Part shown: positions 399-23,858 of the stretch, in pieces
How the letters are laid out: each line of letters opens with the position of its first letter
How positions within the stretch are numbered: position 1 is the stretch's first letter
Assembly: GCA_965649205.1 (NCBI GenBank)
Contig: CBFGJV010000022.1
Span: 1-35,633 of the forward strand
From: a candidate division WOR-3 bacterium
GTDB taxonomy: Bacteria > Hydrothermota > Tepidihabitantia > Tepidihabitantales > Tepidihabitantaceae
Length of the DNA: 35,633 nucleotides
Direction of reading: 5' to 3'
Translations under genes and position numbers: made by a program
Notes under the pieces: generated by a model
The model's input: the letters and a program-made list of their open reading frames with translations, nothing else
Told to the model about the DNA's origin: nothing
The model's database searches: none

Positions 399-470
399 GA
401 GTGACAGGTGACAGGCGACGAGTGACAGGTGACAGGCGACAGGGATAGGGAAGGGGGTGACAGGTGATAC
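394..470 (+). repeat. Degenerate 7-bp tandem repeat tract (GTGACAG-type)
   Basis: GATACGA GTGACAG GTGACAG GCGACGA GTGACAG GTGACAG GCGACAG GGATAGG GAAGGGG GTGACAG GTGATAC, all in 7-bp register. Confidence 0.85.
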
Positions 471-502
471 GATACGGGTACCAGACAGAAAGGAGGAACA
501 CG

Positions 503-2755
503 GTGTCAGGACATCTTTATGGTCGCATCTGCGACCCGAGTACGCTCTTTCGCGCCTGGTCTGCTGTGAAGGCCAATGCCGGCGTGGCCGGTGCGGATGA
601 GGTATCACTTGGCGCGTTTGAGCAGAGTTTGAACCAGAACTTAGCTGGCCTTTCCCGGTCGCTCTTGAATCAAAGCTACGTGCCCGAGCCGACAAAGGCG
701 GTGATGATTCCGAAGTCGGATGGCACGAAGCGACGTCTTTGCGTTCCGTCGGTGAAAGACCGGGTGGTACAGCAAGCGACGCGGACGGTGCTGGAGCCTT
801 TGTTCGAAAGCAAGTTTCTGCCTTGTAGTTTTGGATATCGGCCCGGAATGGGACCGCTCCGAGCAGTCGGCAGGGTGGAAACACTGCTTCATGAAGGTCG
901 CGTCTGGGCTGCCGGAGCCGACATTGACGACTTCTTCGACTCGATTAGCCACACGATTCTGCTCAGGCTCGTGGCCGAGCGGGTTTGGGAGAAACCGGTG
1001 CTGAGGCTCATAGAACTCTGGCTTCGGACCGGCTCTGTACACATGGGTAGCTGGCGCGAGAATCTGGAGGGTGTGCCCCAAGGCGGTGTGATTTCGCCCC
1101 TGCTCTCCAACATCTACCTTCATCCGTTTGATATGGAAATGACCCGTCGTGGGTATGGTCTTGTACGCTATGCCGACGACTATCTGTTCCTTGAGCCAGA
1201 GCGGAACCGGGCAGTTCAGGCGGCCCGCGAAGCGGCTGGATTCCTCGCGCGCGAGTTGTTGCTCAAGACCGAGGCACCGGAAGTGACACACGCGGGCGAG
1301 GGGTTTGTCTTCCTTGGCTTCCTTTTTCAGGGCGGGAAGAAAACTATAGCCCCGGGTAAGCTGGAGGAAATGAAGCGGAAGGTGACAGAGGTGGTGAGAA
1401 GTGCCAAGACCATTCCGGACACCGTGAGCCGGCTCAATCTGCTGCTTGCCGGCTGGCGGAACTACTATGGCGCAGGCGATACCGAGGAGCAGTTGCGACT
1501 CATCGAGACCGTGGTGTTCCGCGAGCTTGGCACTAGACTAAAGACCCTGCCGGTTGACAGCCGGGCCGGAACCCGGCAATGCTTGGAAAGACTGGAGTTT
1601 CTGCTTCCCAAGTCTCAAGCAGGTCGGGCGAAGTTCATTAGTCTGCTGTTTGCGTCTGCCGTGTCCGGGCCTGGTCGTACAGAAAGCACGTCACCGCCAG
1701 AGCCTGCACAGGCCGTGAAGACAAGGCGTCGTCAGTATGAGCGGCTGGCAGAAGAAGAGTCGGTGTTGGTGGTGGACCGACCAGGGTCCTTTGTCGGCAA
1801 GACCAGTAGGCGCGTGGTTGTGCGCGAACGGGGCCGCCGCACGCGGGAGTTGCCCCTATTTCGGTTGCGGAACATCATCATCGAATCTAATGGGGTGGGC
1901 GTTTCCAGCGACCTGGTCCGGTTCTGCTCAGGCCAGGGCGTAACTATCAGTTTCCAGGATGAACGTGGCCGACCCTGCGCCTTCCTGGTTGGGGCTGACC
2001 GGGCCGCCTATCCATTGACCATCGCCCAGCTCGAGACGCAGAAGTCGGAGCGCGGGAACTGCCTGGCGCGTGCCTTCATAGAGGGTAAGGTTACGAATCA
2101 GATGAATCTCCTGCGCTACTATGCCAAGTATCGAGGCCGGGCCGAGTCGGAGTTCCGACAGGAGATACCCGGGGCGGTCGAGAAGCTGGCCGGACTACTG
2201 GAGCAACTGGCCGGTCTGGAATCGGACGAGCGGTTCGGCGGCCAGCTCTTTGCACTCGAGGGGCAGGCCGGAGGGATCTACTGGGGTCTGGTGAAGGCCT
2301 TGCTTGCATCGGATGCCTGCTTTGAGCGTCGGGAAAAGAAGGGAGCCACCGACCTTGTGAACTCGCTCTTGAACTACGGATACGGGATACTCTACTCGTT
2401 GATGCACCGGCTGTTGGTCCTTGCCGGGCTGAACCCTTGTGTCGGCTTCATCCATCGCGGTCCCGCGGACCGGTCCAACCTGCTGTTTGACGTGGTAGAG
2501 GAGTTTCGCCAGCCGGTCGTTGACCGGGCGGTCATCCGGCTCCTGCGCAAGAAGGCGCGGCTGGGGATGGACGGGGTGTTGCTTGACCAACGTACCAAGC
2601 ATCGCCTGGTGACCGCCGTGATGGACAACCTGGGTTCTCCGGTATATTACCGCGGAGGCCGATCGAGTCTTCGGAATGCGATGGAAGGACAGGTTCAGCG
2701 TCTGGTTGGCTTCATCAAGGGCAGGGAGCAATACCGGCCATTCATTTTTCACTGA
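503..2755 (+). CDS. cas1: Reverse transcriptase-Cas1 fusion (group II intron-like RT, thumb/X domain, Cas1)
   Basis: RT motifs: IPKSDGTKRRLCVPSVKDRVVQ, SFGYRPG, DIDDFFDSISH, GVPQGGVISPLLSNIYLHPFD, RYADD, FLGF. Thumb-like LAGWRNYY. Cas1 motifs: LEGQAGGIYW, VNSLLNYGYGIL, GFIH, DVVEEFR. Start moved from 464 to GTG 503, which follows SD AAGGAGG (490-496). Confidence 0.95.
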   Translation: MSGHLYGRICDPSTLFRAWSAVKANAGVAGADEVSLGAFEQSLNQNLAGLSRSLLNQSYVPEPTKAVMIPKSDGTKRRLCVPSVKDRVVQQATRTVLEPLFESKFLPCSFGYRPGMGPLRAVGRVETLLHEGRVWAAGADIDDFFDSISHTILLRLVAERVWEKPVLRLIELWLRTGSVHMGSWRENLEGVPQGGVISPLLSNIYLHPFDMEMTRRGYGLVRYADDYLFLEPERNRAVQAAREAAGFLARELLLKTEAPEVTHAGEGFVFLGFLFQGGKKTIAPGKLEEMKRKVTEVVRSAKTIPDTVSRLNLLLAGWRNYYGAGDTEEQLRLIETVVFRELGTRLKTLPVDSRAGTRQCLERLEFLLPKSQAGRAKFISLLFASAVSGPGRTESTSPPEPAQAVKTRRRQYERLAEEESVLVVDRPGSFVGKTSRRVVVRERGRRTRELPLFRLRNIIIESNGVGVSSDLVRFCSGQGVTISFQDERGRPCAFLVGADRAAYPLTIAQLETQKSERGNCLARAFIEGKVTNQMNLLRYYAKYRGRAESEFRQEIPGAVEKLAGLLEQLAGLESDERFGGQLFALEGQAGGIYWGLVKALLASDACFERREKKGATDLVNSLLNYGYGILYSLMHRLLVLAGLNPCVGFIHRGPADRSNLLFDVVEEFRQPVVDRAVIRLLRKKARLGMDGVLLDQRTKHRLVTAVMDNLGSPVYYRGGRSSLRNAMEGQVQRLVGFIKGREQYRPFIFH

Positions 2756-2790
2756 TGTGGTAGCTTGTCACTTATTACCTGTGAGGAGAT

Positions 2791-3042
2791 ATGGTTGTCG
2801 TTGTGAGTTACGACATCGTTAGCGACCGACGCCGGGTCCGGGTCTGCAACAAGCTGAAGGACTATGGCCGACGCGTGCAGTACAGCGTGTTCGAATGCAA
2901 TCTGGACGAACGCAGGCTGGCCGAGCTTGCGGCCGAACTCTCTGTTCTGCTCAACGTAGGGCAGGACAGCATTCGGTTCTACCGGCTCTGCGAACGGTGC
3001 GCCGCTAGGGTTGAAGTCATAGGCCATCCTGCCAGTCCTTGA
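2791..3042 (+). CDS. cas2: CRISPR-associated endoribonuclease Cas2
   Basis: VVSYDI..RRR.RV...L..YG.RVQYSVFEC and DSIRFYRLC..C motifs; 83 aa; SD GAGGAG. Confidence 0.96.
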   Translation: MVVVVSYDIVSDRRRVRVCNKLKDYGRRVQYSVFECNLDERRLAELAAELSVLLNVGQDSIRFYRLCERCAARVEVIGHPASP

Positions 3043-5119: not shown

Positions 5120-7804
5120 CTACTTTAGCACGATGGCTTTCTGGGCGAATATGCCGTCCTGGGTGATGAGCTGGAGCAGATAGATGCCGTTTGTCAAACC
5201 CGTGCCGTCCAAGTCGAAGCTAATCTGTTCGGCCAGTCTGGCCGGTCGTGACTGGGTTGCGACTATTCTACCGTCCATAGTGACAGTACGTAGTTCCACT
5301 TGCCCGGTGACCGGGGAGATGAAACTCACCCGGGAGTGGTGAGTGAAGGGATTGGGCGATATTTTGAGGACGTAGGGTAGACGGTTGAGCAGAGGAGGGG
5401 TTTCGGCGACTCCGGGTATGCGTTCGCCAAACCAGGCGAAGATGCGGCGAATGAGGGTCCATTTCTGCAGATAGCGGTTTGTATGGTCTATGGCTTCAAA
5501 GGGCACGGAGAAGTAGACAAGTCGGTAAGAGCCTTCGTAGCGGATGACTGAGTAAACCGTGGTGTCGCCATAGTCCTTGAAAAAGGCGCAGCCAATACCG
5601 CCATTGACAGCCCGTACGCCGTCAAGCGAAGAGCCGTTGTTCTGGCCGCCGCCACCACCTACAACCATTGTGTCGCCCCGGGTGATGGGGTCTGCGGGGA
5701 AACCGGGCAGATAGAGTTTGCCGGTGGATCCAGTGACCAGTTCGGCGCGCAAGTAGTTGGAGAGAAAGGGGTGGCCGGAAAGATTCTGGGCTATGTTCTT
5801 GCCGGAAATAATGAGGTTGCCGCCGTTGTCCAGATAGCCGGTCAGACTGGTTATCTCAGCGGCGGTAAGGGTGGTGAGGGAATCGTCGCCCGTGAACCAG
5901 ATGACAATCGGATAATGTTTGAGTGTGTCGGTTGAAGGCGCTCCCAGAGTCTGCACGTCAAAGCGATGGTAGAGAATACCGGAAGAGTCCAGGGCCGCAG
6001 TGTACCAGCGTTCTATGTTCGTGCCCAAATCGTCGTCCACCAGTAGAACGCGAGATTCCCCAGATAGAGTGGTGAAGAAGGTATCAGGATACGCCGGGTC
6101 AGGCTGGGCATTGACGGTAAGGTAGAAGAGAAGTTTCTGGGGTGCGTTGTCCGCCGGAATCTCGATGACAAAGGAGTCGGCTGAGCAGTCCCGGGTAGAG
6201 CCGCTGGGTATATGGGGGAAGGTGGCGGTGGCTTTGTGAATTCTTACCCTGGAGTTGGCGCTGGCGGTGAGCGTGGCGGTGACGTTGCCGGCATCGCGCA
6301 TATTGGGTTTGTTGCTGTAGCTGACAATGAGACCTACGATTTCGCCCGGGTCAGGTCGGCCATTGCCGTTGCCCGAAATGTCGTTGAAGCGCCAGCCAGA
6401 CAGACGCAGGTCACAATAAAAATGAGGCAGGATGATGTTGGCCATTGATACCCGGCCAGCTCCCAGTTTGCCCTGGCGGTAGAGGGGGTCGGGCATAGTG
6501 TCGCAGGTGGCGTGCATCAGAGCGGTGCAGGCTACATTGGTGAGTGACGGGTCGAATGATTTCATCCAGCAGGCGACAGCCGCAGCTGCCGGACAGGACA
6601 TGGAAGTTCCGTCCATTGAGCCGTAGTAGCCGGAAGAACGGTTGTAGGTGGCGAGAATGCCTGCACCTGGAGCGGTGACATCCACCCAGGGACCGTAGTT
6701 GGAAAAGCTGGCGCGGACATCAGAGGAGGTGGAGGCGGCGACATTTTCCACGCCCGGGTTGCAGGCGGGCCAGCGCTGGGCTTCCTGGCCGTCGTTACCG
6801 GCGGAGCCGTAGAGGACGCAGCCACTGTTCCAGGCATAGAGGCAGGCATCAGCCAGAGAAGAGGAGCGGTTGCCACCAAAGCTCATGGATATGGCCCAGA
6901 CTCCGGCCGGGACCGCGTGATAGATGGCGGCTACAGCACAGTTGATGTAGATGCCGCCGCCGAATCCGGCGCGTACGGCAAAGGAACGGGTGTTCCAGGT
7001 ATAACCGGCCACGCCAATGCCGTTGTTGGTGACCGCGTTTATATTGCCCCAGCAATGAGTGCCGTGGTCATCACCGTAGTCGGGCAGCGGGTCGGGCTCG
7101 CCTGATACATAATCAAAACCGATGACATCGTCATTGTAGCCGTTGGCATCCTGGTCAATGTCGTCTAGGTCTCCCAAGGGCGGAGGAGCGGGGTCAAATT
7201 GGCCGTTGCCGTTGATGTCCTCAGGGCGATTAATCCAGAGGTTGGCGGAAATATCCGGGTGCAGCCAGTCGGTGCCGGTGTCGATTACCAGATTCAGAAC
7301 CGCAGTGTCGCCTTTGGCCACGCCCCAGGCAAAGGGTGCTCCTACCTTGGCCAGATGCCATTGCGCGGAATACATGGAGTCGTTGGGCTTGGCGTCTACT
7401 TCATAGCGCAGGTTTGGTTCAGCAAACTCCACGAGTCCGGTGGCTTCATATGCTCGGCAGGCTTCGTAGACGTCGCATGCGGGGTCAAACTGTATTATGT
7501 ATTGCAGGTCACAACCGAGCTCCAGGGCTCTGGAGTCAGGATAGGGGTGGCGATACAGTTTGGTGATGTCGTCCACTTTGTATCTGCGGTTCAGCTGGTC
7601 CAGTTCAGGCACACCGAACAGCACGGTCCCGTCTGTTTCCTGAACCGAAACTCTGCCCCGCAGTGCAGACTTGAGTTCCAGGATGAGTTGACCGGCTACA
7701 TACTGGTCGTTGTTTGCCGCGGTCAAGACTGGCCGGGAAAGGTCGGGCCAGGCCAGAGACAGGGTAAAAAGGACAAGGGACATAGATATGAGTTTGGATT
7801 TCAT
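5120..7804 (-). CDS. Secreted S8 (subtilisin-like) serine protease with T9SS-type C-terminal domain
   Basis: Signal peptide MKSKLISMSLVLFTLSLA. Catalytic D (VIDTG), H (DHGTHC), oxyanion N (SAGN), S (GTSMSCP). C-terminal ISPNPF...GIYLLQL...K tail. Start set at ATG 7804 after SD AAAGGAG (894 aa). Confidence 0.92.
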   Translation of the reverse strand: MKSKLISMSLVLFTLSLAWPDLSRPVLTAANNDQYVAGQLILELKSALRGRVSVQETDGTVLFGVPELDQLNRRYKVDDITKLYRHPYPDSRALELGCDLQYIIQFDPACDVYEACRAYEATGLVEFAEPNLRYEVDAKPNDSMYSAQWHLAKVGAPFAWGVAKGDTAVLNLVIDTGTDWLHPDISANLWINRPEDINGNGQFDPAPPPLGDLDDIDQDANGYNDDVIGFDYVSGEPDPLPDYGDDHGTHCWGNINAVTNNGIGVAGYTWNTRSFAVRAGFGGGIYINCAVAAIYHAVPAGVWAISMSFGGNRSSSLADACLYAWNSGCVLYGSAGNDGQEAQRWPACNPGVENVAASTSSDVRASFSNYGPWVDVTAPGAGILATYNRSSGYYGSMDGTSMSCPAAAAVACWMKSFDPSLTNVACTALMHATCDTMPDPLYRQGKLGAGRVSMANIILPHFYCDLRLSGWRFNDISGNGNGRPDPGEIVGLIVSYSNKPNMRDAGNVTATLTASANSRVRIHKATATFPHIPSGSTRDCSADSFVIEIPADNAPQKLLFYLTVNAQPDPAYPDTFFTTLSGESRVLLVDDDLGTNIERWYTAALDSSGILYHRFDVQTLGAPSTDTLKHYPIVIWFTGDDSLTTLTAAEITSLTGYLDNGGNLIISGKNIAQNLSGHPFLSNYLRAELVTGSTGKLYLPGFPADPITRGDTMVVGGGGGQNNGSSLDGVRAVNGGIGCAFFKDYGDTTVYSVIRYEGSYRLVYFSVPFEAIDHTNRYLQKWTLIRRIFAWFGERIPGVAETPPLLNRLPYVLKISPNPFTHHSRVSFISPVTGQVELRTVTMDGRIVATQSRPARLAEQISFDLDGTGLTNGIYLLQLITQDGIFAQKAIVLK

Positions 7805-7855
7805 TAGGAAGTTCTCCTTTGCAGGCTGGTTGGATAGCCGCATAGTAGTAGTAAT

Positions 7856-10540
7856 TTACCTGACTACGGCAATCTTCTGGGCGAAGACGCCTTCGGGGGT
7901 AACCAGTTGTACAAGATAACATCCTGCAGGCAGGGAGGTTCGGTTCAGGGAGAATCTGACCTCCTGGCCCAGGGTGACGTCCCGGGTATTTGTGGAATGG
8001 ACCCGTCCGTCGAGGTCACAGATGCGCAGTTCGGCTGTGCCGGTTATGGGCGAGATGAAGCTGACGGTGGCATTTCTGGACAGGGGGTTGGGAGCAATTT
8101 CCAGTACATAGGGACGCAGGAAAGGCATGGGTGCAGGTTCGGCAGCGCCGACCAGGGGTTCGTCAAACCAGCGGAAGATGCGTTTTAAGAGGGTCCAGCG
8201 CTGCAGGTAGCGACTGGAGTGGTTTATGGCTTCGAAGGGAACAGAGAAATACACCAGACGATAAGTTCCCTGGTAGCGAATGACCGAGTAAACCGTAGGG
8301 TCGCCGTAGTCTTTGAAGAAGGCGCACCCGGTGCCGCCGTTTATGGCTTTTACACCGTCAAGAGAGGAACCGTTGTTAGCTCCTCCGCCGCCTCCAGCCA
8401 CCATGGTGTCGCCCTGAGTTATGGGGTCGCCCGGAATGCCGGGCAGATAGAGTTTGCCGGTGGAGCCGGTGACCAGTTCGGCGCGCAAGTAGTCAGAGAG
8501 GAACCAGTGAGAAGACAAGTTCTGGGCTATGTTCTTGCCGGAGATAATGAGTTTGCCGCCGTTGTCCAGGTAGTTCACCAGGCTGACTATGTCGTTCGTG
8601 GTGAGGGTGGTGAGAGAGTCGTCGCCGGTGAACCAGATGACTACCGGGTAATGTCTGAGCGTGTCGGCCGAGGGCGAACCCAGATTGCGGACATTGTAGG
8701 TATGGTAGACGATGCCGTTGGAGTCACAAGCGGAGGTGTACCACTTTTCGTAGTCCTTGTCCAGGTCGTCGTCCACCAGGAGTACCCGCGGTTCTCCGGC
8801 CAGAGCAGAGAAGCTGGTGTCCGGATACGCCGCGTGGGGCGTGGCGGTTACAGTGAGGAAGAAACGTACATTCTGCGGAGGAGCGTCAGATCTTACAGAG
8901 ACGACGAAGGAATCAGCGGAGCAATTGCCGGAAGAGCCGGCGGGAATCGGAGGGAAGGTGGCGGTGCTTTTGGTAATCGTGACCCAGGGGCTGGTGGTGG
9001 CAAGATTGGCGGAGATGTTGGAAGCGTTGCGGTAGCCGGCAGTGTTGCTATAGGTTACGATGAGCGCCACAGTCTCGCCGGGGTCAGGTCGGCCATTACG
9101 GTTGCCAGAGGCGTCGTTGAAACGCCAATTGGTAAGCCGCAGGTCGCAGTAGTATTGCTTGAGAACCAGGTTGGCAAGGGATACCCGGCCGGCACCCAGT
9201 TTGCCTTGGCGATAGAGCGGGTCGGGCATAGTGTCGCAGGCGGCATGGATGCGGGCGGTGCAGGCTACATTGGTGAGCGAGGGGTCAAGGCTTTTCAACC
9301 AGCAGGCCACACCCGCGGCCAGGGGACAGGCCATCGAGGTTCCGTCCATAGAGGAATAGGAACCGCTGCTGCGAGAGACGGTGGAATAGATGCCCACTCC
9401 TGGCGCGGTAACGTCCACCCAGGTGCCGTAGTTGGACCAGGAAGCTTTGACGTCGCTGTTGTTGGAAGCGGCTACGTTTTCCACGCCCGCATAGCAGGCA
9501 GGATAGCGCATGTTTTCCAGTCCTTCGTTGCCGGCTGAGCCGAACAACACCAGACCGGCATTCCAAGCTGCCAGGCAGGCATCGCGCATAGGAGCGTAAA
9601 CAGAAGAGCCGCCGAAGCTCATAGAGATGGACCAGATGCGTTCGTTGGTGGCGTATTGGATAGCGCTGGTAGCCTGAGACAGGTATATGGAGCCGCCGTA
9701 TCCGGCCCGGCAGGCAATAGAGCGGGTATTCCAGGTGGTGCCGGCTACACCGGTGGCGTTGTTGGTTACAGCGTTGGTGATGCCCCAGCAATGGGTGCCG
9801 TGGTCATCACCCGTGTTGGGCGCGGGGTTCGGGTCACCGGAGATGAAGTCCCAGCCGATAACGTCGTCCCGATAACCGTTGCCGTCCTGGTCAATGTTGT
9901 CCAAGTCACCGCTAGGAGGAGGAAAGGGGTCAAAGCGGCCGTTGTTGTTGATGTCTTCAGCCGCCTTTATGCGCAGGTTGGCTTCTATATCCGGATGCTG
10001 CCAGTCCAGGCCGTCGTCAATTACTGTGTTCACTACGCTGGCGCTGCCTTTGGCTATCTTCCAGGCAAAGGGAGCGCCCAGTTTAGCCAGATGCCACTGG
10101 TTGACATATCCCGGGTCATTGGGAATCTCGTCCAGCTGCAAGACGGCGTTGGGACAGGCGTAGTCCACTTCTTCCAGCCGGGCGTACATACTGCAAGCTT
10201 CATACACATCAAACTCTGGTCGGAATTGCACCGAGTACTGCAGGTCGCAGCCCAGTTCTACCAAGGCGGGATGAGGAGAAGGATGAGGGGTGAGGGGAGT
10301 GATGTCGTCCACCCCCAGTCGGGTGCTCAATTCGTCCAAGGCCGGGACGCCGAAAAAGGCCAAGCCGTCCTGATTGGACAGTTGTACGCGGCCGCGCAGA
10401 TGCGGTTTCAGTTCTATAATTACCTGTCCGGCCACATAACGTTCACCGTCTTTTCCCGTCAGGACCGGTCGTGTGAGGTCGGGCCAGGCCAGGCTGAGCG
10501 CGGTGAGCAAGGTTAGAACTGAGAGAATCCTGTTATTCAT
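7856..10540 (-). CDS. Secreted S8 serine protease, tandem paralogue of 5120-7804, with T9SS-type C-terminal domain
   Basis: VIDDG, DHGTHC, SAGN, GTSMACP; signal peptide; IAPNP...GCYLVQL tail; SD GGAGG; 894 aa. Confidence 0.92.
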   Translation of the reverse strand: MNNRILSVLTLLTALSLAWPDLTRPVLTGKDGERYVAGQVIIELKPHLRGRVQLSNQDGLAFFGVPALDELSTRLGVDDITPLTPHPSPHPALVELGCDLQYSVQFRPEFDVYEACSMYARLEEVDYACPNAVLQLDEIPNDPGYVNQWHLAKLGAPFAWKIAKGSASVVNTVIDDGLDWQHPDIEANLRIKAAEDINNNGRFDPFPPPSGDLDNIDQDGNGYRDDVIGWDFISGDPNPAPNTGDDHGTHCWGITNAVTNNATGVAGTTWNTRSIACRAGYGGSIYLSQATSAIQYATNERIWSISMSFGGSSVYAPMRDACLAAWNAGLVLFGSAGNEGLENMRYPACYAGVENVAASNNSDVKASWSNYGTWVDVTAPGVGIYSTVSRSSGSYSSMDGTSMACPLAAGVACWLKSLDPSLTNVACTARIHAACDTMPDPLYRQGKLGAGRVSLANLVLKQYYCDLRLTNWRFNDASGNRNGRPDPGETVALIVTYSNTAGYRNASNISANLATTSPWVTITKSTATFPPIPAGSSGNCSADSFVVSVRSDAPPQNVRFFLTVTATPHAAYPDTSFSALAGEPRVLLVDDDLDKDYEKWYTSACDSNGIVYHTYNVRNLGSPSADTLRHYPVVIWFTGDDSLTTLTTNDIVSLVNYLDNGGKLIISGKNIAQNLSSHWFLSDYLRAELVTGSTGKLYLPGIPGDPITQGDTMVAGGGGGANNGSSLDGVKAINGGTGCAFFKDYGDPTVYSVIRYQGTYRLVYFSVPFEAINHSSRYLQRWTLLKRIFRWFDEPLVGAAEPAPMPFLRPYVLEIAPNPLSRNATVSFISPITGTAELRICDLDGRVHSTNTRDVTLGQEVRFSLNRTSLPAGCYLVQLVTPEGVFAQKIAVVR

Positions 10541-20062: not shown

Positions 20063-20095
20063 CCGCGCTTCCGCTTGAAGGAGTGCGCGGCTTTT
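20063..20095 (+). terminator. Putative intrinsic terminator
   Basis: CCGCGC-TTCC...GGAG-T-GCGCGG hairpin followed by CTTTT, just after the FG-GAP stop. Confidence 0.5.
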
Positions 20096-20099
20096 GCTC

Positions 20100-20128
20100 T
20101 TGACCACAGAAGCGCAGAGGGCCATAAT
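20100..20128 (+). promoter_or_regulatory. Putative sigma70 promoter giving a leaderless transcript
   Basis: TTGACC, 17 nt, CATAAT, 6 nt, in-frame GTG at 20135; no SD. Confidence 0.55.
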
Positions 20129-20134
20129 CACAAT

Positions 20135-22180
20135 GTGAAAGCACCGGGCCGGCGCGTGGACTGGCGGCAGTGGCTGGTATTCGCAGGGGTAGCCCTGCTC
20201 AGTGTTCTGCTCTATCTGCCCACGCGGAAATACGATTTTGTCTGGGACGACGGGCCGCAGATAAGAGACAATGAACACCTGGCGCGGCTGAGTCCGGTCC
20301 GCGTGCTTTTTTCCGGGTATGTTCTTGACCCCAAGATAGCGCTGCAGACCGGTACTTTCACCTACTACCGGCCTTTGCCCATTCTCAGCTTTCAACTGGA
20401 AAAGAAGCTGTACGGCAACAACCCAGTCGGGTACCATTTCCACAACGTTCTTTTGCACACAGTAGCGGTGCTGCTGGTATGTGCGGTGCTTTTTACCCTT
20501 TTCCGGTCAATCTGGTGGGCGGGTGCCGGCGGACTTCTCTTTGCTCTGCATCCGGCTTTGCACAGCGTGGTGACATTTGTGTCCAACCGTACCTATCTTT
20601 TGGCCGGTGTATTCCTGCTGCTGGCACTCTTGGCGCTTTTGCGGGGACAGAAAAGAAGGCAGACAACTCGCAGAAAACCGTCCGGCTGGTGGCCGTTGCT
20701 CTATGGTTTGGCGTTCTTTCTGGCTCTTCTGTCCTTGGAGTCCTGTCTGCTTTTCGTGCTGGCGGCACTGGCTTGGCTGCTGCTCACGCAGAAGAGCTAT
20801 GTCAGGCCGCCGGTCTGGTTTCTGGCGTCTGGGCTACCGCCGCTTGCTTATCTGGTCCTGCGTCTTTTGGTGGCGCGGGTTCCTTTTGCCGAAACTGTGA
20901 TAGGTGCGGGACTTGCCCAACCTCTGACCATATTCAACAACTTCGGTCAGCAGACATTGTCCTTTCTGGTGCCGGTAGGGTTGAAACTGGTTCATACAGA
21001 CAAAAGCATAGGCGGCCGTTTTTCCGGTTACACCCTGGTGGCTGGCTTTTTTCTGCTTCTGCCTCTGGTCTGGTATTTTGTTTATGCCCGACATCGATCG
21101 CAGGCTAGAGCTGAGACCAATAAGCTGCTTTTAGGCTTTGCCCTTGCCGTCTTCCTGCATCTGCCTTTTGCCCATATGCTGGAAAAAGGGCCTGCGGGTC
21201 GCATGCTGTATCTGGCCGGCCCGGGTATTATCATCGTTCTCTTGGTGCTGGCTAGACAGCTCAGCGTCAGGGTGCCACGCGCAGGGCCGGTTCTGGCTCT
21301 GGCGACGCCAGCTGTGGCTTTTGTGTTCTCTATTGTGACCAGACAGCAGATCGCTGCCTGGAACACAGACTTGAGCCTGTTCCGCACGATGCTTGTCCAG
21401 CAGCCTGACTACCTGCCCGCCAGTCAGAATCTCGCGTTGGCGCATATGCAGAAAGGGAACAAAGATTCGGCCTTGGTATATCTGGAACGGACCCTAGCTT
21501 TGGATTCCACCTATGCCAAAACCTATGAAGTAAGGGGTCTTCTATATGCGGCAGATGGAGACTATCAACGTGCGGTAGAAGATTTCACCCGGGCTATCAT
21601 CTACGACTCCACCTTTGTGACTGCCTACTACAATTGCGGCCTGGCTTATCTGCGGATGAACCAGCTGGAGCCGGCGCGAAAGAACTACGACCGCGCTATG
21701 CAACTGGCGCCAGATTGGGCAGATGTGTATCTGGGCCGCGGCACGGTAAGTTTACGTCAGGGGGAGACAGAAGAGGCAATAAGGTTCTATACACAGGCGC
21801 TGAAGCTCAAGCCGGAGTTTGCGGATGTCTGGGCCAATCGCGGCTGTGCGTACCTACTGCTGGGTAACCATAAGCAGGCTCTCGCCGACTGTAACGAAGC
21901 TTTGCGCCTGCAACCCGGGTCTGTGACTTTGCTGGTCAATCGGGCGATGGCGTATATGGGGGTAGGAGAATACGCACTGGCGCTGGCTGATTACGAAGAT
22001 GCATTACGCCGGGAGTCAGGGCTGGCGCAGGCACACTATGGCCGGGCCCGCTGTCTTGACCTCCTGAACCGAAGGGAAGAAGCCATAACCGCCTACGAGA
22101 AATTTCTCAGTCTGGGGACAGCTTCAGGTGCGCAGGCTGACACTGGCCGGCAAAGAATCAGAATTCTCCGCAGCAGGTAG
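20135..22180 (+). CDS. TMTC-like GT-C membrane protein with C-terminal TPR repeats
   Basis: FVWDD, YYRPL, GYHFHNVLLH and LLFALHP motifs in a multi-TM N-half; multiple TPRs (AYYNCG, VWANRG, AHYGRA). Start moved to GTG 20135 on promoter geometry. Confidence 0.8.
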   Translation: MKAPGRRVDWRQWLVFAGVALLSVLLYLPTRKYDFVWDDGPQIRDNEHLARLSPVRVLFSGYVLDPKIALQTGTFTYYRPLPILSFQLEKKLYGNNPVGYHFHNVLLHTVAVLLVCAVLFTLFRSIWWAGAGGLLFALHPALHSVVTFVSNRTYLLAGVFLLLALLALLRGQKRRQTTRRKPSGWWPLLYGLAFFLALLSLESCLLFVLAALAWLLLTQKSYVRPPVWFLASGLPPLAYLVLRLLVARVPFAETVIGAGLAQPLTIFNNFGQQTLSFLVPVGLKLVHTDKSIGGRFSGYTLVAGFFLLLPLVWYFVYARHRSQARAETNKLLLGFALAVFLHLPFAHMLEKGPAGRMLYLAGPGIIIVLLVLARQLSVRVPRAGPVLALATPAVAFVFSIVTRQQIAAWNTDLSLFRTMLVQQPDYLPASQNLALAHMQKGNKDSALVYLERTLALDSTYAKTYEVRGLLYAADGDYQRAVEDFTRAIIYDSTFVTAYYNCGLAYLRMNQLEPARKNYDRAMQLAPDWADVYLGRGTVSLRQGETEEAIRFYTQALKLKPEFADVWANRGCAYLLLGNHKQALADCNEALRLQPGSVTLLVNRAMAYMGVGEYALALADYEDALRRESGLAQAHYGRARCLDLLNRREEAITAYEKFLSLGTASGAQADTGRQRIRILRSR

Positions 22181-22254
22181 AGGACTAGCATATCTGCCTA
22201 AAAATGACAGCCAGTTCTAGTAAGCAGTCAGTATGCCTACTCTGCTTATGACCG

Positions 22255-22542
22255 GCATTCAAGGCAGTAGGCATACATTAAGGTTGAGCGCAGGGCATAA
22301 TTCCCCGCATAATGTACAGCGGACTATCCTTCCTTTATCTGTACCAGTCCTGGGTCTGGGTAGGGGACAGCTGGAGTGCTAGCCCTGGGGCTAGCCCCAA
22401 GGCTTGTGGTGCAATCTGTATAAGATGTGGCATGACATACCTTTCTGTAGCTGGTAGCTGTGTCCATCTATACCGTTGATTTACTGGTTGTTCGCTTTTC
22501 TGGGGGGCGTGCGTAATGCTGTTTATGTAGCATAGCTGGGCC
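22255..22542. repeat. Highly degenerate 12-bp-phased tract (~24 units)
   Basis: Every position 22260+12n (n=0-23) is a pyrimidine. The base 2 nt later is G in 11 of 13 core units (22351-22506) and is never C. Visible near-repeats: AGTGCTAGCCCT/GGGGCTAGCCCC, and GCATAAT at 22295 and 22307. Confidence 0.65.
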
Positions 22543-22544
22543 AC

Positions 22545-22573
22545 TTGACGGGATAGTGGGATGTGGGTAAACT
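22545..22573 (+). promoter_or_regulatory. Putative sigma70 promoter of the 22676 gene
   Basis: TTGACG, 17 nt, TAAACT. Confidence 0.6.
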
Positions 22574-22584
22574 TGTATTGCAGG

Positions 22585-22645
22585 TGCCTGTTGCCGTGAT
22601 GGCGGGCGCTGATTCGGGTCGGTTTCGCATCATCGGCACAGGACA
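22585..22645 (+). promoter_or_regulatory. Long imperfect hairpin in the predicted 5' UTR
   Basis: CCTGT(T)GCCG-TGATG(G)CG... pairs with ...CGCATCA(T)CGGCACAGG; lies between the promoter and SD GGAGG. Confidence 0.5.
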
Positions 22646-22675
22646 GGGTTGAATAAGGGCCGAAGGGAGGTAATT

Positions 22676-23044
22676 ATGCCGGTGAAGCCCAGTCCGGAAC
22701 GAATATACAACTATGACCTGAAGTATGATACAGAGGTCATAAAGAAGCTGACGGATAAGAGACGGGAGAGGATGTTGGCCAAGCAGACAGAGGCGCAGGT
22801 GGCTCTGGCTGAACTGGAGGACAGGGCCAAGGTGATTCTGGGAGCCCACGGCGCGCCTACCTATGCTTACCCCGCTTATTTGAATTTCTGTCGCGAGCTG
22901 TGGAAGAAGTCGCGCAAGTTTCACGATCAGACTCTGGCCAAGGAAGCCATAGTGATTCAGGAAAAATGGGTGGCGCGGGAGTTGAAGAAGGAAATACTGG
23001 TGGCGTTGCGTAGGGACCTTTTTGGTATTCAGGACCCGGTTTAG
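22676..23044 (+). CDS. 122-aa alpha-helical basic protein resembling rudivirus (SIRV2-fold) major capsid proteins
   Basis: SD GGAGG, ATG 22676. Patterns RIYNYDLKY, ILGAHGA, AYLNF, TLAKE...KW and EILVAL match my recollection of the SIRV coat protein (RYAKWQAKF, VLTQYGI, IYQGF, ALVNM...YY, QVLDAV) in order and spacing. The CDS is secure; the homology is inferred. Confidence 0.6.
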   Translation: MPVKPSPERIYNYDLKYDTEVIKKLTDKRRERMLAKQTEAQVALAELEDRAKVILGAHGAPTYAYPAYLNFCRELWKKSRKFHDQTLAKEAIVIQEKWVARELKKEILVALRRDLFGIQDPV

Positions 23045-23091
23045 GTCGGAAGCAGCTCGCAGTTGGCACAAGTCAGCGGAGGGTTCTGGCG

Positions 23092-23120
23092 TTGACAGGC
23101 GCAGGTTTCTTCTCTAGAAT
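23092..23120 (+). promoter_or_regulatory. Putative sigma70 promoter of pdxJ, near-leaderless
   Basis: TTGACA, 17 nt, TAGAAT, 9 nt, GTG at 23130; no SD. Confidence 0.65.
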
Positions 23121-23129
23121 GCGCAGCCC

Positions 23130-23858
23130 GTGAAAACACTTTCGGTAAATATTGACCACATAGCGACTTTGCGCCAAGCCCGGGGCGAGAAGTTTCCCGA
23201 CCCGGTGCAGGCCGCTGCTCTGGTGGAGCTGGGAGGAGCGGACGGCATTACCGTGCATCTGCGTCAGGACCGCAGACACATAAACGAGCGGGATGTATTG
23301 CTGCTGCGGGAAACGGTGCAGACTGAACTCACGGTGGAGATGGCGGCGACCGAGGAGATGATTCGCTTTGCCTGTAAGGTGAAGCCGGATCAGGTGACAT
23401 TGGTGCCGGAGTTGACCACCGAGCGCACCACCACCCGGGGGCTGAATCTGCTCCAGGAGCGTCGGGGGCTGAAAGCCAGAATCGGTCGGCTGCAGGATGC
23501 GGGTGTGCGGGTGAGCCTTTTTATTGAGCCTGACCCCAGACAGGTGGAAGTGGCAGTGGAGCTGGGCGCAGAGGGGGTGGAGCTTTGTACCGACAGGTAT
23601 TGTCGCAGTTTCCGCACCCGACCGGAGTTCTTAGAAGAGCTGGCGGCCGCGGGGCAGGCCGCCCGTGAGGCCGGTCTCGTGGTGCATGCCGGACATGGGC
23701 TTGATTATCTGAATATAGTGCCGATTCTCCGGCGGGGACTGGCAGACGGTTTCAGCATAGGTTTTGCCATCGTGGCCCGGGCGGTGTTTGTGGGTTTGAG
23801 AGCGGCGGTGGCGGAAATGAAACGGGTGATTGAGGTGAATTATGGGGAAAGAAAATAG
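23130..23858 (+). CDS. pdxJ: Pyridoxine 5'-phosphate synthase
   Basis: LSVNIDHIATLRQAR, PDPV, GADGITVHLRQDRRHI, VTLVPE, VSLFIEPD, HAGHGL. Confidence 0.96.
   Translation: MKTLSVNIDHIATLRQARGEKFPDPVQAAALVELGGADGITVHLRQDRRHINERDVLLLRETVQTELTVEMAATEEMIRFACKVKPDQVTLVPELTTERTTTRGLNLLQERRGLKARIGRLQDAGVRVSLFIEPDPRQVEVAVELGAEGVELCTDRYCRSFRTRPEFLEELAAAGQAAREAGLVVHAGHGLDYLNIVPILRRGLADGFSIGFAIVARAVFVGLRAAVAEMKRVIEVNYGERK

Follow-up and report, generated by a model that had tools for sequence, protein, structure and literature searches.

The window, meaning the whole 35,633-nucleotide stretch of DNA that was analysed, is a 35.6-kb contig of housekeeping genes in which a TPR membrane protein gene, the window gene and pdxJ-secD-secF follow one another. 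The window gene is an intact ORF on the forward strand (22676..23044, ATG start) with host-like GC, encoding a 122-amino-acid protein predicted to adopt the Adnaviria (SIRV2-type) major-capsid-protein fold. Its upstream neighbour, on the same strand, encodes a membrane protein with TPR repeats (20075..22180; Pfam TPR matches); this gene was not found beside orthologues of the window gene and is treated as context outside the system described here. Downstream, also on the forward strand and likewise context, lies pdxJ (23130..23858; PF03740), for which a promoter scan predicts a promoter of its own (23092-23120).

A Shine-Dalgarno sequence read from the DNA, GGAGGT (22666..22671, forward strand), ends four bases before the ATG, and GGAGG is common to six of seven aligned orthologous loci. 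A consensus scan predicts a sigma-70-type promoter, TTGACG-17-TAAACT, at 22545..22573 on the forward strand, with three such sites in 22180-23200 against 0.8 expected. The promoter is of housekeeping type, no sigma gene is nearby, and directly upstream runs a degenerate 12-bp-periodic tract of about 26 units (22231..22542, forward strand, ends approximate) that stops at the -35 box. The first-pass annotation of this DNA had described a stand-alone bacterial gene of about 120 codons with its own promoter and a strong Shine-Dalgarno sequence. Length, ribosome-binding site and, as a prediction, promoter hold, and the gene does stand alone at this locus, but genome-wide it is one of a multicopy, order-wide family.

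Elsewhere in the window, a CRISPR-like array with repeats of about 35 bp occupies the contig start (1-394), its second spacer recurring as the fourth, and is followed at 464-3042 by a reverse transcriptase-Cas1 fusion (763 amino acids) and a small 83-amino-acid ORF. Two tandem S8 subtilase genes of about 900 amino acids each (5120-10540) both carry a weak secretion-system C-terminal sorting domain. An ORF of at least 1,638 amino acids that is open at the contig end (30718-35631), rich in Thr, Gly and Asn and with a signal-like start, looks like a gene for a beta-helical surface protein or adhesin.

Searched singly, the window protein gave no meaningful match in Pfam, NCBIfam or the PDB, chance-level matches only in PHROGs and nothing useful in the ESM Atlas; a narrow 15-sequence profile also had no match in the PDB. 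Fourteen close relatives were found, one of them labelled candidate division WOR-3, and a profile of these 14, searched against 1.84 billion representatives, matched 543 clusters at E<=0.001. An alignment of 107 full-length members served as the family profile, and it is through this profile that homology to Adnaviria was detected, the single sequence giving nothing. In the PDB, it matches the coat protein of SSRV1 (6wq0, E 5.8e-7), that of SIRV2 (3j9x, E 8.5e-6), SFV1 (6d5f, E 1.7e-3) and AFV1 (5w7g, E 0.017-0.03), ahead of the best unrelated chain at E 0.16. Among the 107 members, 34 match PF12193 (Sulf_coat_C), five match PF21660 and two match PF25647, and a viral coat protein from IMG/VR is matched at 98.9% probability. 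A scan of IMG/VR with the canonical-paralogue alignment recovered five archaeal-type viruses at 29-32% identity, and a scan with the window subfamily recovered none.

The predicted model of the window protein (pLDDT 94, pTM 0.75) consists of a long N-terminal helix and a C-terminal bundle, with helices at residues 6-16, 19-57, 62-81, 84-100 and 105-116. When 48,161 chains were ranked by structural similarity, the first seven ranks were all Adnaviria capsid proteins (Z 14.0 down to 7.7), and the first unrelated chain followed at Z 7.5. Foldseek also placed 3j9x first (TM 0.74), with an E value of only 0.012; neither the PDB nor BFVD yielded a match at E<=0.001, although the top rows were Adnaviria proteins. 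A homodimer prediction scored 0.01 against a mark of 0.42, a score that speaks neither for nor against dimerisation.

The protein is basic (pI 9.4, net charge +6), with a net charge of +3 in residues 1-45, in keeping with the basic N-terminal helix noted at first pass. The basic or aromatic character of R9, Y13, K16, R30, K52, R73, W98 and R101, positions spread along the helices, is kept in 85-100% of the 107 family members, and in the family-profile alignment R, W and K of the N-terminal segment of 3j9x align with R9, Y13 and K16. The likeness to the SIRV coat protein had originally been drawn by eye from five motifs, of which I54-L55...G59, Y68..F71 and I107-L108-x-A110-L111 lie as described; the spacing of the other two was off, R..Y..KY being in fact R9-x3-Y13-x2-K16-Y17, and the leucine of L......K(W/Y) being L87, nine residues before K97-W98. 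The likeness itself is borne out by family profile and fold, including the suggested search against viral coat-protein profiles, and neither a match to an unrelated cellular family nor a fold without the C-terminal bundle appeared. By profile and predicted structure, the window protein truly belongs to the fold family of the Adnaviria capsid proteins.

It nevertheless belongs to no Adnaviria virus. Adnaviria have archaeal hosts, whereas relatives of this protein are labelled candidate division WOR-3 bacterium and the host genome (2.15 Mb, 98% complete, 0.14% contamination) carries bacterial genes for sigma-70, HU/IHF and ParB; in place of a linear viral genome, the gene is flanked by the TPR membrane protein, pdxJ and secDF genes. 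A replacement of HU by the coat-fold family is unsupported, HU/IHF being still present. In a class-wide search, one HU/IHF match occurs in 24 of 34 genomes of the window's family and two in nine, whereas all 20 genomes covered from other families of the order have two; these counts are compatible with a possible loss of one paralogue in the window's lineage.

Within the phylum, every one of the 58 genomes sampled from the window's order has the coat-like family and none of 193 genomes of other orders does, the 251 genomes being a sample in which kin are not independent. Each genome of the order has from two to 17 or more matches. The paralogue count proposed at first pass comes to 14 profile matches in the host genome, the window gene and 13 more; some are intact canonical copies, and others are shorter, diverged types, fusions of two domains or broken; some copies lie at contig ends. 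The window subfamily is patchy, with orthologues in seven of 66 order genomes at E<=1e-30, and its other loci are never syntenic with the window, none having the window's neighbours; gene order is poorly kept in these genomes generally, the upstream neighbour of pdxJ differing in five of five relatives. The subfamily is under purifying selection, with dN/dS of 0.06-0.30 in 15 of 15 pairs and of 0.09-0.19 between the window gene and five orthologues.

A GTDB-wide scan yielded 41 loci, whose recurring neighbours are other family members, an ECF-type sigma factor and a small protein. The sigma gene is present in 17 of the 41 loci, nearly always just upstream and on the same strand, and the small protein directly follows it in nine. 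By inspection, no integrase, Rep or packaging gene is found among the neighbour clusters recurring in at least three of the 41 loci, no mobility, replication or lysis gene recurs among the neighbours of the 41, and no viral gene recurs near the 36 cellular-type loci. The fullest arrangement runs from a tract through short paralogues, sigma gene and small protein to the canonical copy. Paralogue types include short A and B forms without the N-terminal helix, fused double domains, helix-turn-helix fusions and copies beside the ECF sigma gene. In the host genome, the motif TTACGAA-N14/15-GCATATA precedes the sigma gene on contig C12 and family genes on contigs C12, C17 and C43, which suggests a possible private regulon.

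On contig C12 of the host genome (69210-70912), an ECF-type sigma gene and a short ORF are followed by a canonical coat-like gene, and the promoter-like motif stands before both the sigma gene and the coat-like gene. A tract and a three-paralogue cassette on contig C43 (5163-6680) directly abut the far end of a CRISPR array that has 37 repeats and adjoins cas1-cas2. Locus L047 (1039-1698) encodes a fusion protein, its XRE-type helix-turn-helix joined to a C-terminal domain that matches the bundle of the coat proteins (92% probability). A coat-like domain considered for a gene in the XRE region of contig C1, which is in two frames with a tract before it, is unsupported (1.5% probability).

The 12-bp-periodic tract in front of the window gene is a candidate binding lattice. 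Its core (22378..22398), a candidate nucleation site, comprises two GCTAGC boxes 12 bp apart and is closed by a 12-bp palindrome, GGGGCTAGCCCC (22387-22398), that occurs once in the genome; Tandem Repeats Finder reports period 12 at 22378-22404. The motif GCTAG-N5-GGGCTAGC (22378-22395) is invariant in seven of seven aligned orthologous loci, whose upstream regions are otherwise only 52% alike. By autocorrelation the window tract is weak (z 3.0-3.3 at 22171-22470) and falls below the genome-wide cut-off, and all seven other loci of the window subfamily have a tract 380-480 bp upstream with z of 5.4-11. Scored with a matrix derived from flanking units at five other orthologous loci, the 20 flanking units of the window reach 0.81 in register, whereas the other 11 phases give -2.4 to -7.7; none of 5,000 shuffles reaches the in-register score, which homologous tracts may inflate. 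Because the in-register score exceeds those of all other phases and all shuffles, the window tract is taken to be real. A dyad symmetry of the lattice is unsupported, the correlation between the matrix and its reverse complement being r = -0.27.

A similar predicted promoter follows the tract in all eight orthologous loci. The distance from core to -35 box is 155, 166, 107 (four loci) or 143 bp (two loci), and it leaves a remainder of 11 modulo 12 in seven of these eight non-syntenic loci and of 10 in one. The agreement in phase among four distinct distances has a probability of about 0.005 by chance, the -35 boxes having been picked by consensus score and not by phase.

Tracts of this period extend well beyond the window. 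The host genome has 16 tracts of period 12 at z>6, dispersed over the chromosome, compared with 0-1 for each of periods 7, 9, 10, 11, 13, 14, 17, 18 and 21 and three for period 15; periods 8, 16, 20 and 24 have harmonics in common with 12. In 1.10 Mb drawn from three relatives that lack the family there is one such period-12 tract, these control genomes being few and related. Of 42 family loci, 14 have a tract at z>5 in the 1 kb upstream and none has one downstream; the set had held 44 loci, of which two were left out because their flanks were short, and it includes some near-duplicates. The remaining 28 have no tract within 1 kb, though some have one further up, at the head of the operon. The idea that the tracts are genes for tetrapeptide-repeat proteins was ruled out: the type on contigs C1 and C43 has a 4-bp sub-period, and the tracts are mostly intergenic.

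Of 20 tracts inspected in the host genome, only two are next to an intact family gene. Some are placed between convergent genes, where there is no promoter for them to regulate, two lie inside coding genes, and some are relics that carry a promoter and the first codons of a truncated gene. Duplicated tracts have diverged by 10-23% through substitutions with few gaps (77-90% identity). Copies of one tract are dispersed over contigs C1 (64741-65311), C5 (931-1501), C6 (11761-12301), C8 (34471-34951), the end of C10 and C20 (14401-14971), and those on C1, C10 and C20 keep the promoter motif but only the first codons of the next gene. Relic copies end raggedly, with neither terminal repeats nor target duplications seen, and no mobility gene, defined ends or target-site duplication was seen at the window locus or in seven aligned tract copies.

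Relatives of the family also occur on small virus-like contigs. Five contigs from the GTDB scan carry two or three tandem coat genes that are 35-43% identical to the canonical bacterial paralogue; they are filed with Thiobacillus, Phycisphaerae, Syntrophaceae and one further bacterial bin, where only one or two contigs of this kind have family matches, and a bin can contain stray contigs. A metagenome scan added 77 virus-like loci (circular-element set: L101-L106, L110-L186). Five metagenome loci have 127-base terminal overlaps, which implies circles of 7.0-9.1 kb. The circular elements are GC-rich (60-66%; for example, L144, L155, L160, L164, L165 and L103) and have genes for two coat proteins, for fibre-like and small membrane proteins and for one small regulator; no replication gene was recognised in them by eye. 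L103 also encodes a D12-class (Dam-type) methylase, a glycosyltransferase and a peptidase M15, and the peptidase M15 cluster is found in seven of 82 loci. The first coat protein of these elements matches the window subfamily at 98.7% probability, and two scans of IMG/VR gave no match to their coat proteins. As to hosts, 55 spacers from the host genome gave only 15-16-base matches to the retrieved loci, and no host link emerged. The peptidoglycan peptidase M15 points to bacterial hosts, and the elements are candidate bacteria-infecting adnaviruses.

The phylogeny with coat proteins that had been suggested at first pass took the form of a quick unrooted tree, in which 29 of 30 rows from the order fall outside the branch (SH-aLRT 90) holding the virus-type proteins; no direction of transfer between virus and cell is drawn from it. 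Order locus L015, where a coat-like gene lies next to an M15 gene, groups with the virus-type proteins. In one order genome (L107:469-2908), a sigma factor, a 271-amino-acid protein and a coat-like gene are followed by a peptidase M15 gene, an arrangement that by its gene content links the cellular cassette to the circular elements.

The structures of related virions suggest how such a protein may act. In AFV1 virions, a dimer of the SIRV2-type fold wraps A-form DNA with a 12-bp repeat per dimer, and in SIRV2 the two-fold axis of the dimer passes through that of the DNA, according to the structural account cited (PMC5517147). We consider that there is an even chance that the window protein is a domesticated nucleocapsid protein that polymerises on the 12-bp lattice and regulates its own and other promoters; it would likely coat DNA to control genes, not to build a virus. 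The protein would dimerise and load at the conserved core, and the filament would spread from there along the upstream lattice by 12 bp per step, wrapping the DNA as in a virion and converting the tract to A-form. The filament end would fall at a fixed promoter position, reaching the phased -35 box, and binding would repress, likely damping the window gene's own promoter.

Paralogues and dispersed orphan tracts may be parts of a wider, chromatin-like system made up of loaders, caps and polymer units. A correspondingly broader reading, which we hold tentatively and rate short of an even chance, is a programmable chromatin in which coat-fold dimers read chromosomal 12-bp lattices, A-form filaments act in promoter phase, and private sigma factors serve as switches, the whole originating in small circular Adnaviria-like viruses of bacteria. 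Several observations weigh against the regulatory reading: the window tract is weak by autocorrelation (z 3.3) and its matrix test involves homologous tracts, a tract within 1 kb is lacking at 28 of 42 family loci, the patchy, non-syntenic subfamily and the truncated relics fit a mobile cassette equally well, and HU/IHF and ParB are still in the genome. Two alternatives, a mobile cassette and a bulk protection of the genome, stay live because so few inspected tracts adjoin an intact family gene and because of the truncated-gene relics, the convergent and intragenic tracts and the ragged, 77-90% identical copies.

The first of these, which we regard as somewhat unlikely, is a selfish mobile cassette or satellite, with the tract as packaging signal and a protein that would coat the excised cassette into a filament moved by a virus or by host recombination. 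Such an element would account for orthologues at a different site in each of the seven genomes, the high copy number per genome, the dispersed tract copies with truncated genes, the existence of small circular virus-like relatives and the order locus with a family gene beside an M15 peptidase, as in the circular elements. However, the changing sites count for less in genomes whose gene order is poorly kept anyway, no mobility, replication or lysis gene recurs near the 41 loci, and the ragged relics show neither terminal repeats nor target duplications. The circular elements, moreover, are mostly without 12-bp tracts (three weak ones in 41 contigs of at least 4.5 kb), and presence in 58 of 58 genomes would be unusual for a satellite.

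SASP proteins of spores and Dps protect DNA in bulk, and by analogy a stress-activated ECF sigma factor might turn on the paralogues so that many lattices would seed an A-form coating of the chromosome, a reading that we judge unlikely. It would explain the ECF-type sigma gene in 17 of 41 loci, the promoter-like motif common to sigma and family genes and the roughly 16 strong tracts dispersed over the chromosome, and the viral fold is described as insulating DNA in A-form (PMC5517147, in the part cited). Against it, the window copy has a housekeeping-type promoter and no sigma gene near it, and Spo0A (PF08769), as a sign of an endospore programme, has no match in the 98% complete genome. A sequence lattice would also be unneeded for bulk coating, and the phase-locked promoter would go unexplained.

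We find it improbable that the family is an antiviral decoy, in which host coat-like subunits would co-assemble with and poison the capsids of filamentous viruses of these bacteria, by analogy with Fv1-type restriction. The many diverged and truncated paralogues, the related virus-like circles and the one cassette abutting a CRISPR array suit a decoy, but the 55 host-genome spacers have no match longer than 16 bases to any retrieved locus, purifying selection is strong, and lattice and phased promoter again find no explanation. A provirus remnant or contaminating viral DNA, to which the broken copies and those at contig ends might point, is hardly credible, given an intact gene of host-like GC inside a 35.6-kb housekeeping contig, a dN/dS of about 0.1-0.2, a family that follows taxonomy exactly and genome contamination of 0.14%.

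The capsid proteins of this fold have been described as exclusive to an archaea-specific realm (PMC13700489, in the passages cited), and the cited portion of a recent preprint treats SIRV2-like proteins only in archaeal viruses (bioRxiv 10.1101/2025.08.23.671958). In the titles and opening lines of abstracts covered, with few subscription papers among them, no description of bacterial or cellular homologues of this family was found. Nothing was found linking Adnaviria with WOR-3, and titles and abstract openings contained no report of 12-bp periodicity with A-form DNA describing this family. A cellular, order-wide bacterial family breaks the archaeal-virus exclusivity of the fold, and the origin of the fold, from virus to cell or from cell to virus, becomes testable. 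With the circular elements, the Adnaviria lineage may have its first bacterial members. If the lattice model is true, local B-to-A conversion on a sequence-encoded 12-bp grid would be a new way to organise and regulate bacterial DNA, and a small soluble protein with a defined 300-bp substrate would become available for studying the nucleation of A-form nucleocapsids.

Protein, lattice and phased promoter together form a cellular system for which no match among described kinds was found. The closest comparison is with the rudivirus coat proteins (SSRV1, 6wq0; SIRV2, 3j9x; the SIRV C-terminal domain, 3f2e; PF12193), which are likewise of about 120-135 amino acids and share the long basic N-terminal helix and the C-terminal bundle. 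They superpose on the window model at Z 14.0 (121 residues, rmsd 5.0) and Z 11.9 (79 residues, rmsd 2.1), with TM 0.72-0.74 and about 10% identity in the structural alignment. Unlike the rudivirus coat gene, the genes of the window family are chromosomal in a bacterium, number many copies and lack viral neighbours, and the window protein is paired with a 12-bp lattice and a phased promoter, for which no report was found for these viruses. The heterodimeric capsid proteins of AFV1, SFV1, SIFV and PFV2 (3fbz, 3fbl, 5w7g, 6d5f, 6wq2, 6v7b) have the same fold (Z 6.2-13), and the bacterial family similarly has diverged paralogue pairs and fused double domains; the bacterial loci, however, are without envelope or virion genes, and in their operons an ECF-type sigma factor accompanies three or four types of paralogue. 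The circular elements differ from the bacterial family in their tandem coat genes and fibre-like genes, sometimes with M15 and methylase genes, and mostly lack the 12-bp tract.

Among cellular systems, the spreading nucleoid proteins H-NS and ParB (on parS) and the A-form-inducing SASP offer an analogy in working only. They combine site nucleation, polymerisation along DNA and autoregulation or protection, but their fold is unrelated to that of the window protein, HU/IHF and ParB coexist with the window family, and we know of none that uses a 12-bp lattice extending over several hundred bases. Gene transfer agents and encapsulins, whose shells derive from HK97-type proteins, are likewise cases of a virion protein kept by cells under purifying selection. 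The bacterial family differs from them in that no particle-assembly operon was seen and in that its fold is of the DNA-wrapping nucleocapsid type.
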